Below, one piece after another: positions 48,265-52,864 of a stretch of DNA of 64,000 nucleotides. The notes beneath the pieces are model-generated. The model worked only from the letters and a program-made list of their open reading frames with translations. It was not told where the DNA came from and made no database searches. Position 1 is the first letter of the stretch, and every line of letters begins with the position of its first letter. The position numbers and the translations under genes were made by a program. Origin of the DNA: an uncultured Chloroflexia bacterium (GTDB taxonomy: Bacteria; Chloroflexota; Anaerolineae; Anaerolineales; UBA4823); assembly GCA_963744375.1 (NCBI GenBank), contig CAVUTH010000008.1, positions 6,746 through 70,745 on the forward strand. The letters run 5' to 3'.

Positions 48265-51200
48265 ATGATTCTTACCACACACACCGCCGGGGTTTCCGGT
48301 GGGGAGGGCTCAGGGGTGGAATACGAGGATTTTTCAATTAAGATTGAGCCGCGGCAGGGCGATGCCTACCCGGTGATCGTGCTGCGCTCGCCGGCGGGCG
48401 AAGGACGCTCGCAGTTCACCCCGCCCTTCGACCCTGCCCGCCTGGCGGAGCAAGCCGCTACCCTGGACCAGGAAGTGCGCACCCGCCAGCCGGCCTCCCG
48501 GGATGCCTCCCCGGCTGCCACCGCCAGCCTGCCGCAGCGCATCGGCGACCAGCTGTTCACCGCCCTGTTCTCGGGCGTGGTGCGCTCGTTATTCGACCGC
48601 TCTCTGGGTATGATGCAGGTGCAGCAGCGCGGCCTGCGCATCAAGCTGCACATCGACCCGGAAGACCCCAGCCTGGCAGCGCTGGTCGCGCTGCCGTGGG
48701 AATACCTGTACCGTAAAGAGACCCGCGAGTTCCTCAATCTCTCCCGTTTCACCCCCATCCTGCGCGACCTGGACGTGCAGCGCCCCTACATGCCGCTGCA
48801 GCTGGCTCTGCCGCTGCGCATCCTGGTCTTTGCCGCCGACCCGATCGATTACCCCCGCCTGGAGCTGGAGCGCGAACAGCAGCAGTTGGAAGCCTGCCTG
48901 GGGCGGCTGCCGGGCGTGCAGGCGGAATTCCTGCCCCACGCTACCCTGGCCTCCTTGCAAGAGCGCCTGGGCGAAGCGGCGTACCACGTGCTGCACTACA
49001 TGGGCCACGGCGGCTTCGACGAAGAGTCCGGCAGAGGCGTGCTGCTGCTGGAAGACGAAAATCAACGTGCGCAGCGCGTCGACGGCGGCACCTTAAGCGT
49101 TCTGCTGCACGATTTCGCCTCCCTGCGCCTGGTGTTCCTGAATGCCTGCGAAACCGCCCGCCTGGCCGGCGAGCATGGACTGGATCCCTTTGCCGGGGTG
49201 GCTTCGTCGCTGGTGATGACTGGCATCCCGGCGGTGGTGGCGATGCAGTTCCCCATCAGCGATCGGGCGGCGATCACCTTTGCCCAGCGTTTCTACGGTC
49301 TGCTCTCGCGCGGCCAGCCGGTGGATGCGGCGGTGGCTGAAGGACGGCGGGCGCTGCGCATGGCCGAGCCGGATACCCTCGAGTGGGGCACCCCGGTGCT
49401 TTTCACCAGCGCCCCCGATGGCGTGATCTTCACCGTAGCCGGCCAGCCCCAGGCCATTGCTGCTCCCGCGCCGCTGCACGCCGCCGCCGACGAGGTGGAT
49501 GCCGGCGAGCAGCTGCGCATCCAAAAGCTGTACAACGATGGCCTGGAAGCCTTCTGGCTGGAAGATTGGTCCCGGGCCGAAGCCTGCTTCAGCCAGGTGA
49601 TCGCCGCCCGGCCAGAGAACCAGGATGCCCGCCTCAAGCTGGATGAAGCCAGCCGCCGGCGGGAGCTGCAGGTGCAGTATGCCGCCGCCCAGTCTGCTCA
49701 GGAAGCCGGTGATTGGCCCGCCGCGATCGCCGCCCTGGAGCAGCTCGAAAAGCGCCAGCCCGGTTACAGGGATGTCTCCGAACGTCTGCAAGCAGTCCGC
49801 CGCAGTGCTCAGCTGGCCGACCTGTACGACCAGGCACGCCAGCTGTTTCAGGCGGCTCGCTGGACTGCCGTATTGAAGGTCTTTTCCCAGATCCGCACCC
49901 TGCAGCCCGATTACCCCGACCCCGACCGGCTGCTGGAGCAGGCCAGCAGCCAGGCCGAGGCTCAACGCCAGGCCACCGCTCTGGAGAAGAACTACCAGCA
50001 GGCTCTGGTCGAGCTGGATGCCGGGCGTTGGACGGAAGCCGAAGCCTTGCTGGAACGGGTGCTGGCACAGCAGCCCGATTACCGCCAGGCGCAAGCCTTG
50101 ATCTCCCGGGCGCAGGCCGAGCAGCGCCGCGCACTGGAAGAGCAATCCCGCCTGCAAGCCGAGCGTGAAAAGGAAGAAAAAATCCTCATCCTGTACCGGG
50201 AGGCGCAGGAGCAGCTGGCCGCCGGCAAGTTCAATGCCGTTCAGGCGCAGCTGCAGGCCATCCGGGCGATCGACCCGCAGTTTGACGATCCGCTGGAGGT
50301 GGAAGCGCAGGCCCAGGCCGGGTTGGAGCGCCAGGCCGGCGAGATGCAGCAGCAGGAGCAGCAGGCTGAGCACCTTGCTCGGATAGAATGGCGCTATGAT
50401 GAAGCCGTAAAGCTCCTGGCTGGCAAGGAATATCAGGCCGCACTGGATGCCTGGGAGGCGCTGCATGCGGATGCCCCCGCCTTCCCCGACCGGCAAGGAG
50501 TGGTCCGCAAGGCGCGGCGCGCCCTGGACAAAGCCGGCGAGGTGCAGCGGCAGGAGCAGCAGGCTGAGCACCTTGCTCGGATGGAATGGCGCTATGATGA
50601 AGCCGTAAAGCTCCTGGCTGCGAAGGAATATCAGGCCGCACTGGATGCCTGGCAGGCGCTGCATGCGGAGCCCCCGCCTTCCCCGACCGGCAGGGCGTGG
50701 TCCGAAGGCGCGGCCCTGGATAAGGCTGCCCACAGCAGCGCCCGGCGCTGGAAGAGCCCGCCTGGCCCGGGCCCGCGTTGGGCCTGGGTAGTTGGCGGGG
50801 TTACACTGCTTGCCTTGCTGGTGGGTGGATTTTTCCTGCTGCGCGGTCCTTTGCCTAAAAAGTATACGGACTACCAGGGCATCCCGATGGTACTGGTGCC
50901 GGCGGGGAATTTCATGATGGGCAGTGATTATTATGAGCCGGATGAACGCCCCTTCCACCAGGTGCGCCTGAGCAGCTACTACATCGATCTCTACGAAGTT
51001 ACCAATGCCCGCTATGCAAAATGCGTCTCTGCTGGGGCGTGCAAGCCTCCAGGGACATATTCTTCCCGCACGCAGGCGCAATATTATGACAGAGCTAACT
51101 ATTCAACTTACCCTGTGATTTATGTGAGCTGGGAGCAGGCGCAGGCTTACTGCCAGTGGCGCGGGGCGCGCCTGCCAACCGAAGCCGAATGGGAGAAGGC

Positions 51201-51618
51201 CGCCCGCGGTTCAAAACGCGCGAACCTACCCCTGGGGAAACAAGTTTGATGGCACGCGAAGTCAATTTTTGCGACCTGAAATGCCCAAATCCGGAGAACA
51301 ACAAGTCTTTCGACGGGTATGAAGATACCGCCCCGGTAAACATTTTCCCCCAGGGAGCCGGCCCCTACGGGGCGCTCAACCTGGCCGGCAACGTCTCGGA
51401 GTGGGTGGCAGACTGGTATGATCCGGATTTTTACGCTCACTCTCCAAATTCCAACCCCGTGGGACCGCCTTCCGGGAAGATGCATATTTTGAAGGGTGGT
51501 GATTTCGGTCTCCCGAGATTGCAATCTTCCGATCGCTATGCGGTTAGATCCCGGGTTTGCATCGGACGCTGCCGGTTTTCGCTGCGCTTACTCCCCGGGA
51601 CTATTATTTGGCTATTAA
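48265..51618 (+). CDS. CHAT (caspase-like) protease - TPR/helical repeats - TM - FGE-sulfatase (SUMF1) domain protein; 3 frameshifts in the last 400 nt
   Basis: ORF 48265..51249 has the CHAT dyad contexts HVLHYMGHGGF and LVFLNACETA, long helical repeats, the TM helix WAWVVGGVTLLALLVGGFFLL, and then the FGE domain MVLVPAGNFMMGS...[34 protein letters not shown]. That domain continues out of frame (RTYPWGNKFDG / NFCDLKC...GNVSEWVADWY... / DPGFASDAAGFRCAYSP*) to 51618. Confidence 0.8.
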
Positions 51619-51631
51619 CGCAATGAGGAAA

Positions 51632-51718
51632 GCTGCTCACACTACGTGGGCCACACAAATCGATTGTCATCCTGAGCTTGCGAAGGATGCTAGACCCTTC
51701 GCAAGCTCAGGGTGACAC
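51632..51718 (+). repeat. interspersed palindromic (REP/MITE-like) element, copy A
   Basis: GCTGCTCACACTACGTGGGCCACACAAATCGATTGTCATCCTGAGCTTGCGAAGGATGCTAGACCCTTCGCAAGCTCAGGGTGACAC. The stem is 22 bp with one G-U-compatible position. It ends 15 nt before the ATG at 51734. Confidence 0.75.
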
Positions 51719-51733
51719 AGGAAGAAAGGAACC

Positions 51734-52864
51734 ATGAGCGACTCAGCCACCCTCACCCTGGGCACCACGCCCGCCATCCGCCTGCCCAAGGAAGCCACCC
51801 CGGCGCCGCTGCAGCCCGGCCAGGGCTATTTCCGCGTCCGGGTGCACGCCGCCCAGGCGGCCATCTTCGGCCCCTTTTGGCAGAAATCGCAGCAGCTGGT
51901 GATCACCAGCGAAGTGCGCCTGTTCTGCCCGCCCTTCAACGGCGAGCCGGTGCAGTCGCTGCAGCGCATCAAGCCGATCAAGCAGGGCGCCGCCGAGCAG
52001 CTCGGCCTCAGCCCCTCCCTGGTCGACCTGACCCCCGCGGCCCTGGATAAAGTCGGCATCAGCGTCGAGTTCCTGCTCGACCGGCAGAACCGGCTGGCGA
52101 ACCTGGCGCAGATTGTCAACGACGACGCCTTCCTGTCGGTCGTCTCGCTGGCGCCTGGGGCGGCCGCGGTCGCCAAAGCGGTTGGCGCTCTTTCCAAGAA
52201 GCTGCTGGAAGGCACTCTGGAGGCCTCCGACCAGGTGCCCGTGCTGCGCTTTGCCGGCGATTTCAGCCTGCCGGCCGGCGACCTGGCGGACGCCTACTAT
52301 GTCATCCTGGGGACGCGCTTCGAGCAGCACCCCCTGCCGCGCCCGCTGCCCGGCCCGCCCCGCCTGCAGGTCTCCGGGCGCGACCTGCTGCTGGACAACC
52401 AGCCGGTGGTGCATTGGTCGTACGTCATCCTGGATGTCGACACCGTAGCGGCACGCACGCGTGACCTGGGGCGCGGCGAGCCCTGGTATGAGAAGCTATC
52501 GCTGGTGGAAGTGCAAGTCTCCCAGGTCGCCAACAATCCCTGGCTCAGCGAGGATGAGCGCCGCCAGACCTGGAGCGCCTGCCTGGCGATGATTAAGGAA
52601 GCCGATTTGCTGCTGCGCCAGTCGCCGCTCTACCTGCCCGCCGAAGCGCAGGCCATTATCCAGCAGGCTTATTTCAATGCCCAGCAGCAGGTCTTCCCCC
52701 AACGGCGAGAGGCCCTGGCCCTCACCCTCCCGGAGGGCAGGCCGGAACCCCCCGCTTTCTCCTGGGCCGCCGATGAGCAGGCCCTCACCCGCCAGGTATC
52801 TGCCTACGAAGGGTTGACCGCCCCCGCCCGCGGCAAGCTGCGCAGCATGGGCATGCTGAAGTAA
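51734..52864 (+). CDS. hypothetical protein (376 aa), possible partner of the CHAT protein
   Basis: Intact ORF behind AGGAAGAAAGGA. It has no TM segment and I recognise no motif (…GYFRVRVHAAQAAIFGPFWQKSQQLVITSEVRL…VLRFAGDFSLPAGDL…WSYVILDVDTV…). Confidence 0.6.
   Translation: MSDSATLTLGTTPAIRLPKEATPAPLQPGQGYFRVRVHAAQAAIFGPFWQKSQQLVITSEVRLFCPPFNGEPVQSLQRIKPIKQGAAEQLGLSPSLVDLTPAALDKVGISVEFLLDRQNRLANLAQIVNDDAFLSVVSLAPGAAAVAKAVGALSKKLLEGTLEASDQVPVLRFAGDFSLPAGDLADAYYVILGTRFEQHPLPRPLPGPPRLQVSGRDLLLDNQPVVHWSYVILDVDTVAARTRDLGRGEPWYEKLSLVEVQVSQVANNPWLSEDERRQTWSACLAMIKEADLLLRQSPLYLPAEAQAIIQQAYFNAQQQVFPQRREALALTLPEGRPEPPAFSWAADEQALTRQVSAYEGLTAPARGKLRSMGMLK

Follow-up and report, generated by a model that had tools for sequence, protein, structure and literature searches.

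The stretch of DNA analyzed here (the window) comprises 64,000 nucleotides (nt) from an uncultured Chloroflexia bacterium (Anaerolineales, UBA4823; contig CAVUTH010000008.1) and carries two adjacent plus-strand genes that are probably a protease-plus-target cell death or defense module with a new kind of target. The first gene encodes a CHAT caspase-fold protease joined, through a helical region and a single transmembrane (TM) helix, to an FGE-sulfatase domain, and the second encodes a 376-amino-acid (aa) protein from an unnamed family (the 376 family). We lean, by a small measure, toward reading the pair as a two-gene protease-effector module, in which an outside-in sensor-protease would act on a dedicated target that it cleaves; this reading draws on predicted domains and on analogy with described systems. 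The data show the domain architecture, the conserved catalytic dyad, a linkage to protease genes that matches the clades of the family, the fusions, and the predicted fold, whereas the topology, the cleavage and its site, the action on membranes, and the role in defense are what we infer.

The adjacency of the two kinds of gene is conserved. Loci were drawn from encoding contigs, species genomes, and metagenomes, genome contigs were scanned with a 15-sequence family alignment, and neighbors were classified with Pfam and locally built hidden Markov models, which gave 34 informative, nonredundant loci with a 376-family member. A protease gene directly adjoined the family member in 28 of the 34, typically across a gap of 10 to 35 nt. 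A caspase-fold gene lay directly upstream on the same strand in 22 loci: a CHAT-TM/FGE-type gene in nine (the window, L001, L002, L022 to L026, and L029), a TPR-CHAT gene with a C-terminal CHAT domain, some with an N-terminal CpXC domain, in 12, and a Peptidase_C14 caspase, itself preceded by a NACHT-HEAT gene, in one (L036). Another protease lay directly downstream in the remaining six: a protein of ~650 aa with an HExxH...E motif, accompanied by a 152-aa protein, in four loci and a trypsin-like protein in two (L035 and L038). An earlier, sequence-only reading of this DNA had proposed that the 376-aa protein is a partner or substrate of the protease, an idea supported by these counts; the contrary pattern that it had named, a family living mostly without CHAT neighbors, was not what we found.

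The association holds at several other levels. The order CHAT...FGE followed by a 376-family gene recurred in the window, L001, L022, L023, L024, L025, and L029, where the 376 homologues were 70 to 97% identical to the window protein. In a neighbor-joining tree of the family, clades matched the type of protease partner. Fusions were also found: P0153 combines the 376 domain with a C-terminal CHAT domain, and P0155 carries an N-terminal HExxH domain (DUF6055) ahead of it, while P0166 joins it to EAD1 and P0218, P0239, and P0258 join it to TCAD9. According to Kaur et al. (2020, PMC7159879), EAD1 serves as an adaptor, chiefly for the recruitment of effectors. In L001, a distant 376 paralogue of 359 aa (hhalign probability, 94.6%; E = 7e-8) was encoded directly upstream of a second CHAT gene. 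This second module (L001:2843-9393) runs from the paralogue through a 507-aa CHAT protein to a TPR-rich protein of >1,340 aa. Some family members adjoined SIR2-nSTAND1, NACHT-HEAT, BrxL, EAD8-trypsin, or NucA genes.

Several of these loci have a distinctive order. The HExxH pair always lay 3' of the 376-family gene in one clade (L006:7128-9636, L007:7110-9538, L008:3748-6239, and L004:9288-11695). The larger protein of the pair (623 to 677 aa by open reading frame [ORF] call) has an invariant HExxH with a downstream E-G and is a putative metalloprotease, a classification that goes by this invariant HExxH...E motif only; searches of Pfam and NCBIfam returned no match for either protein of the pair, nor did PDB sequences for the larger one. 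Locus L036:3307-8122 is ordered NACHT/nSTAND3-HEAT, Peptidase_C14, and 376 homologue. Locus L035:1437-6912 is ordered patatin, 376 homologue, EAD8-trypsin, EAD8 protein, and NucA-type endonuclease and is similar to the NucA-peptidase system described by Kaur et al. (2020).

As to the protease gene itself, the ORF list gave a plus-strand frame of 994 codons (48265 to 51249), and removal of three single-base excesses extended the protein to 1,116 aa, ending at the TAA stop at 51616 to 51618. The length of about 1,117 codons read earlier therefore stands after frame correction, while its start probably does not: GTG at 48316 is the likely true start, since it is favored by the preceding GGGGAGGG motif, by the 977-aa gene call P0030, and by the start of the L002 homologue. 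The CHAT domain that had been recognized at the head of the gene, with His in GHG and Cys in NAC, was recovered by Pfam (E = 4.6e-31; 108.8 bits against a cut-off of 24) and by the PADLOC SAVED_CHAT model (E = 8e-17). The catalytic residues are His248 (nt 49006 to 49008) and Cys295 (nt 49147 to 49149), each of which was kept in 124 of 127 aligned CHAT domains. The window domain has both the family-model match and the His-Cys dyad and is a putative peptidase.

The CHAT domain is followed by a helical stretch of about 445 aa. The wording "TPR-like" is apt for this region because TPR models matched it only below their own cut-offs (best E = 2e-4 in Pfam); homologues of the gene carry TPR_2 and TPR_6. 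The region includes a 66-aa (198-nt) tandem duplication (about 50347 to 50544 and 50545 to 50740), seen in BLAST and in the alignment to L022 and not reported by Tandem Repeats Finder, whose unit reads ...EQQAEHLAR[I/M]EWRYDEAVKLLA.KEYQAALDAW.ALHA.... The TM helix WAWVVGGVTLLALLVGGFFLL reaches a mean Kyte-Doolittle hydropathy of 2.31 over 19 residues and is the sole TM-grade segment outside the CHAT core; one other segment above 1.6 lies inside that core. The sequence-only reading of some 450 aa of helical, TPR-like repeats followed by one TM helix agrees with these results.

The gene ends, as had been read, in an FGE-sulfatase domain, which Pfam matched in two halves. The N-terminal half spans aa 875 to 987 (profile positions 5 to 129; E = 4.2e-32; 112.2 bits), and the C-terminal half lies in a shifted frame, in the ORF at 51156 to 51626 (profile positions 151 to 236; E = 1.1e-14; 55.2 bits). 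Full-length matches (profile positions 4 to 255) were obtained for L024 and L029, the latter with a shorter CHAT-FGE protein of 756 aa. By inspection only, rather than by alignment to a solved FGE, the stretch that separates GNVSEWVADWY from GFRCAYSP was free of Cys in the window, L022, and L023. The catalytic Cys pair of true formylglycine-generating enzymes, as in human FGE, lies in this C-terminal part of the domain. The window domain appears to have no Cys pair where the true enzymes have theirs and is for that reason probably a binding domain rather than an enzyme. Kaur et al. (2021, PMC8195603) read such FGS domains, in conflict systems, as binding modules.

Comparison with homologues suggests that this C-terminal domain is one of many interchangeable sensors. 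More than 999 proteins matched the 994-aa ORF at E <1e-10, with the N-terminal CHAT module in common at ~40 to 70% identity. The domains after it varied and included TPR plus FGE-sulfatase, PD40/WD40 propellers, PASTA, SH3, periplasmic binding, LamG-like, TIR, and SIR2 domains; a single TM helix precedes the variable domain in the window protein and in the L002 homologue. The sensor-protease architecture proposed earlier is supported by this constant CHAT module with its exchangeable C termini. Since many of the swapped domains are typical extracytoplasmic modules, a cytoplasmic protease, a TM helix, and a sensor outside would be the natural layout, with the topology predicted from the domains. 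Between L022 (256-1023) and L023 (1-586), synonymous divergence (dS) was 0.61 in the FGE segment and 0.04 in the adjacent 376-family gene (~15 times lower), a contrast which indicates that the sensor cassette has been swapped by recombination between loci that are otherwise near-identical. In the window, the GC content of the FGE segment was 0.55 to 0.59, compared to 0.65 to 0.72 in the rest of the module.

The 376-aa protein had been described as an intact ORF with no recognizable motif, and it had no match in Pfam, PADLOC, or NCBIfam; the same was true of 57 diverse relatives. The GC content at third codon positions of its gene was 0.87. Its 29 close homologues are all unnamed or hypothetical, and searches of 1.84 billion representatives with the family profile yielded 322 clusters (50% identity) at E <=1e-3. 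The family is patchily distributed across Chloroflexota, Acidobacteriota, and Desulfobacterales. The profile had no match among PDB sequences. An AlphaFold2 (AF2) model built with the family alignment had a predicted local distance difference test (pLDDT) score of 86 and a predicted template-modeling score (pTM) of 0.84. In this model, a beta-sandwich at aa ~15 to 238 is interrupted by helices at aa 122 to 167 and is followed by a helical bundle (Table 1).

Foldseek searches with the model gave weak matches to C2 domains in the PDB. For aa 1 to 246, nearly all of the top 50 matches were C2 domains (best E = 7.8e-3; probability, 0.2 to 0.87; TM-scores, 0.2 to 0.47), and the weak matches of the whole protein and of the N-terminal domain included C2 domains of PI3K, PLC, ferlins, CAR4, NEDD4, and PKC. 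C2 domains bind membranes. Just one structure matched the full-length model significantly, an uncharacterized 323-aa protein of Hokovirus HKV1 in BFVD (A0A1V0SF49), and it did so over the full length (E = 1.1e-6; TM-score, 0.41 to 0.46); this giant-virus relative, seen through predicted structures, hints at a fold that reaches beyond bacteria. Homology to gasdermins, suggested by the size of the protein, its beta-then-helical layout, and its protease neighbor, was rejected, as there was no Pfam or PADLOC match and no gasdermin among the Foldseek PDB matches.

Two elements of the 376-aa protein bear on what it might do. The helix AFLSVVSLAPGAAAVAKAVGAL within the sandwich is the most conserved motif of the family, with S138, P141, A140, G142, and A147 invariant or nearly so. 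It is nearly TM grade at aa 132 to 155 and contains the 19-mer with the highest hydropathy in the protein (Kyte-Doolittle mean, 1.7). The insertion that contains it (profile positions 116 to 162) is cleanly missing in the TCAD9-fused variants. The C-terminal bundle is split by a linker at aa ~321 to 340 (nt 52694 to 52753) that starts with FPQRRE and has a pLDDT of <50 at aa 325 to 335. The linker is variable in length, and its motifs differ by clade: members of the CHAT-TM clade keep a conserved Arg (RR, SR, or QR), and those of the HExxH clade have LGAPPxL. As modeled, this disordered linker is a candidate cleavage site.

Table 1. Positions of the two genes, their predicted domains, and the flanking intergenic DNA in the window
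Feature	Position (nt)	Strand	Basis or description
CHAT, helical/TPR-like, TM, FGE-sulfatase gene	48265..51618	+	open frame as assembled ends at 51249
CHAT caspase-fold protease domain	48538..49374 (aa 92-370)	+	Pfam PF12770
Helical, TPR-like region	49432..50769 (aa ~390-835)	+	sub-cut-off TPR_19, TPR_16, and TPR_14 matches
Single TM helix WAWVVGGVTLLALLVGGFFLL	50779..50841 (aa 839-859)	+	Kyte-Doolittle hydropathy
FGE-sulfatase (FGS, C-type-lectin-fold) domain, predicted extracytoplasmic	50887..51615	+	Pfam PF03781, two pieces
376-aa gene, unnamed protease-associated family; candidate substrate/effector	51734..52864	+	intact ORF
N-terminal beta-sandwich domain	51734..52468 (aa 1-245)	+	AF2 pLDDT 86-87.5, pTM 0.84-0.87
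Conserved small-residue hydrophobic helix in sandwich, AFLSVVSLAPGAAAVAKAVGAL...	52127..52219 (aa 132-162)	+	conservation, hydropathy
C-terminal helical bundle split by disordered linker	52481..52846 (aa 250-371)	+	AF2 model
AT-rich spacer with divergent promoter-like sites	47662..48264	.	603 nt
Intergenic gap with dispersed repeat	51619..51733	+	115 nt

Taken together, these features suggest how the module may work. The first gene product would be a single-pass membrane protein that displays a noncatalytic FGE-sulfatase domain outside the cell as a ligand sensor and holds a helical, TPR-like stalk and the CHAT protease in the cytoplasm, where the 376-aa protein would be its dedicated target. 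Binding of a surface ligand, or damage, would change the oligomeric state or conformation of the receptor, and this change would activate the His248/Cys295 dyad. The protease would then cut the 376-aa protein in the disordered linker between helical segments. Loss of the C-terminal helices would free the beta-sandwich and its buried hydrophobic helix, which would most plausibly act on the membrane, with growth arrest or cell death as the outcome. We read the 376-aa protein as an effector because it is constant among many proteases and sensors, is found fused to EAD1, contains a hydrophobic element, and has a partner-specific linker. A more far-reaching version, which we put forward tentatively and consider less likely than the module itself, is that the protein founds a widespread, unnamed family of protease-licensed executioners, each with a C2-like membrane-targeting domain, a buried hydrophobic helix within it, and a C-terminal bundle as inhibitor, that are released by caspase-like, trypsin-like, or metalloproteases; here the executioner would be wired to an outside-in caspase, and the locus would be a prokaryotic analogue of death receptor signaling.

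Several observations weigh against a protease with a dedicated, membrane-acting target. Six of the 34 loci have no adjacent protease, and among these the Thermoflexales copies lie between glgA and xseA-like genes. The CHAT-376 partnership is asymmetric: among the CHAT-TPR(-FGE) genes sampled, most CHAT genes of the window clade have no 376-like neighbor, which requires other targets or roles for the CHAT protease. No catalytic motif is obvious in the 376 family and no pore-forming feature of it is proven, and both its C2-like fold and the membrane idea are leads rather than assignments, since none of the PDB matches, including the best, was significant. The surroundings in the window are a DUF11 surface protein, acyltransferases, and a racemase, with no recognizable defense island. 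A hairpin repeat between the two genes could uncouple their expression, and the first gene is frameshifted in the assembly, such that this copy may be nonfunctional.

The last two points raise the alternative that the locus is a decaying remnant, in which the sensor half of the first gene is a pseudogene, the genes have been separated by the repeat, and perhaps only the 376-aa gene still functions. The three frameshifts reported earlier near the 3' end are present, as single-base excesses at about 51213 to 51219, 51255 to 51262, and 51541 to 51546 (by three-frame translation and alignment to relatives); they are uncompensated in place, bring in a stop codon at 51247 to 51249, and interrupt the FGE frame. 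Alignment to L022 revealed two more frameshift stretches at about 50670 to 50775, with five more indels that compensate each other, and indels gathered in the lower-GC FGE and acyltransferase segments, with 0 in the 376-aa gene (1132 nt) and none in the CHAT gene's first 2.4 kb. The repeat in the intergenic gap is likewise an insertion relative to L022. However, any such decay is not old. The FGE domains of L022 and L023, metagenome contigs with near-identical loci (376-aa gene identity to the window, 95% and 94%, respectively), are uninterrupted, and after frame correction the ratio of nonsynonymous to synonymous divergence (dN/dS) of the domain was 0.22 to 0.29, with 0.29 for the window versus L022 compared to 0.24 for the intact L022/L023 pair. 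The 376-aa gene had a dN/dS of 0.10 to 0.15 against L022 and L023. Other genes of the window are broken as well. The two Acyl_transf_3 genes (52911 to 54153 and 54202 to 55416) are split between frames by about a dozen small indels, have a dN/dS of 0.21 to 0.35, and are intact in L023 (93% identical); a Bmp-like gene is split between frames and a WD40 gene into several ORFs (37116 to 38067 and 37991 to 39843; Pfam), suggesting consensus errors across the assembly. The indel groups relative to L022 (-1, -1, -4; -5, -1; and +1, +1, +1) each sum to a multiple of three, and one possibility is a consensus stitched from diverged in-frame haplotypes. Given the intact relatives, the low corrected dN/dS, and the other broken genes, the frameshifts are either recent or assembly or consensus artifacts. 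Ancient pseudogenization of the FGE domain, the dead gene that the sequence-only reading had considered, is ruled out by the dN/dS values and the intact orthologues, and we consider decay of the locus as a whole an unlikely account.

About equally unlikely, in our judgment, is that the 376-aa protein regulates the protease as an inhibitor, chaperone, adaptor, or trigger-binding element and that the output, death or signaling, is CHAT cleaving other proteins of the cell, as has been suggested for caspase-like proteases of broad action. Other CHAT substrates are needed in any case, as most CHAT genes of the clade work without a 376 partner; no enzymatic or pore motif is evident in the 376-aa protein, beta-sandwich domains are common binding modules, and CATASP, another protease-associated family, has been called a regulator component by its authors (PMC12642450). 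Yet a constant partner of many sensors and protease classes is more easily read as a shared output than as a sensor, and the fusion to an effector-recruiting adaptor, the conserved and nearly TM-grade helix, and the disordered, clade-specific linker all point to an output role. Housekeeping or developmental signaling, such as envelope sensing or cell-cell sensing by a filamentous bacterium, coupled to the regulated proteolysis of a protein involved in structure or membrane trafficking, would fit the nondefense neighbors in the window, the family members in housekeeping contexts, and the PASTA, SH3, and periplasmic binding ectodomains of CHAT paralogues, which recognize cell wall or nutrient ligands. 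This is a more doubtful explanation still, as members of the family are found alongside STAND NTPases, SIR2, EAD8-trypsin/NucA, patatin, and BrxL and are fused to the conflict-system domains EAD1 and TCAD9, the sensor cassette turns over rapidly, and the distribution of the family is patchy. That the two genes are neighbors without functional meaning could be argued from the 115-nt gap and the repeat insertion in the window, but it is highly improbable in view of the directly adjacent protease in 28 of 34 loci, the protease fusions, the congruence of the tree with partner type, and the second, distant paralogue that is also paired with a CHAT gene.

The intergenic DNA on either side of the CHAT gene has features of its own. 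The AT-rich spacer of about 600 bp that had been noted ahead of the block was confirmed by the GC profile, with values of 0.38 to 0.52 in the profile windows spanning it compared to 0.55 to 0.72 in the flanks. It contains five promoter-like sites versus 1.1 expected, including a perfect TTGACA-16-TATAAT on the minus strand (48122 to 48095), facing the DUF11 gene, and TTGAAT-16-GATAAT on the plus strand (48226 to 48253), just 5' of the CHAT gene. The DUF11 gene (44332 to 47661, minus strand) encodes a large secreted protein with four DUF11 repeats; its last ~80 translated residues look out of frame, and it may be frameshifted. The gap between the CHAT and 376-aa genes is filled, as described earlier, by a palindromic repeat. 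Its hairpin (51665 to 51717) is 53 nt long with a 22-bp stem and a folding energy of -42.8 kcal/mol, is not followed by a T-run, and precedes an AGGAAG/AAGGA ribosome-binding site. The repeat is ~100 nt long and MITE/REP-like, with three copies in the window (51621 to 51733; 57707 to 57795, inverted; and 62009 to 62110) that are 84 to 89% identical, each with a long hairpin. It is absent from L022, where the intergenic gap is 10 nt. A terminator, riboswitch, or known RNA in the gap was considered and rejected, as Rfam gave only subthreshold matches to microRNA hairpins and a scan for terminator-like sequences was empty.

Protease-activated latent effector modules are becoming recognized as a principal design in bacterial immunity and in regulated cell death. 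The 376 family appears to be additional to the ten protease-associated effector families listed in 2025 (PMC12642450): it is not among them, showed no homology to them by Pfam, PADLOC, or NCBIfam, and comprises hundreds of clusters linked to three mechanistic protease classes. If the reading of the pair as an outside-in sensor-protease and its target is true, a bacterial caspase-like protease could respond to events outside the cell, such as phage adsorption, contact with kin, or a competitor, and not only to intracellular phage components.

The closest described architecture to the window module is the EACC1-caspase system, which Kaur, Burroughs, Iyer, and Aravind (2020, PMC7159879) list as System 4. 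This membrane-associated conflict system consists of two genes and combines an N-terminal caspase with ~50 alternative C-terminal domains, including TM helices with extracellular PBP domains. EACC1 itself is a cleavage-activated pore former (Evans et al. 2025, PMC12642450). In both systems, the N-terminal caspase-fold protease is constant, the C-terminal region fused to it is highly variable, and the adjacent second gene is constant; both also show enrichment in bacteria that are filamentous or multicellular. They differ in that EACC1 is a small single-TM protein encoded 5' of the protease, whereas the 376-aa protein is a soluble two-domain protein encoded 3' of it. An EACC1 gene upstream was looked for and rejected: the 603-nt spacer has no plus-strand ORF, EACC1-like or otherwise, its small minus-strand ORFs have no Pfam match, and there was no Pfam match to EACC1. 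The gene upstream of the protease gene in L002 encodes a histidine kinase and runs on the opposite strand.

Other protease-linked effectors share parts of this design. The protease partners gasdermin, Pepco, EACC1, MBL, and alpha/beta-hydrolase have been shown experimentally to be latent effectors that are released by site-specific cleavage (PMC12642450). Bacterial gasdermin operons (Johnson et al. 2022, as cited in PMC12642450) likewise combine an effector of a few hundred residues with caspase-like, CHAT, or trypsin-like proteases and with TPR or NACHT sensors, and the gasdermin logic of autoinhibition relieved by cleavage near the C terminus is proposed for the 376-aa protein by analogy. 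The two have no similarity in sequence (by Pfam) or in fold (among the top Foldseek matches), as the 376-aa protein is predicted to have a C2-like sandwich and a helical bundle. Pepco (Trypco1/2) modules also have nonenzymatic partners of serine or cysteine proteases, with sensors that include FGE and TM proteins, and Pepco-linked proteases can carry FGE sensors (PMC12642450); Pepco is a preassembled beta-barrel of 117 aa, unlike the 376-aa protein, which has another predicted fold and no Trypco Pfam match.

On the sensor side, fusions of caspases or orthocaspases to FGE domains have been noted in cyanobacteria (PMC6426788, PMC8283722), and these and the FGS sensors (PMC8195603) place the same Pfam domain on a caspase-fold protease, read as a binding or sensing element. 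The FGS sensors are described as intracellular, often DGR diversified, and STAND coupled, whereas the window domain comes after a TM helix and is predicted to lie outside the cytoplasm, at a locus with no STAND gene. The window itself, going by its nearest relatives, most likely derives from a member of Chloroflexota (Anaerolineae-like) and not from a cyanobacterium. The 12 family loci that pair with a C-terminal-CHAT TPR-CHAT gene recall TPR-CHAT systems with a dedicated neighboring target, Csx30, although there is no CRISPR context here and model searches found no similarity of the 376 family to Csx30. Identity with CATRA components is excluded only indirectly, by the lack of a Pfam match across the 57 diverse family members. 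With the protease-effector modules surveyed in PMC12642450, the 376 family shares direct adjacency to a protease gene (in 28 of 34 loci), a range of partners that spans CHAT in two architectures, C14, trypsin, and the putative HExxH protease, and a phylogeny (by neighbor joining) that follows the type of protease. Set against these systems, the CHAT-FGE protein is of a known kind, and the novelty appears to lie in its partner, an undescribed family of protease-linked candidate effectors.

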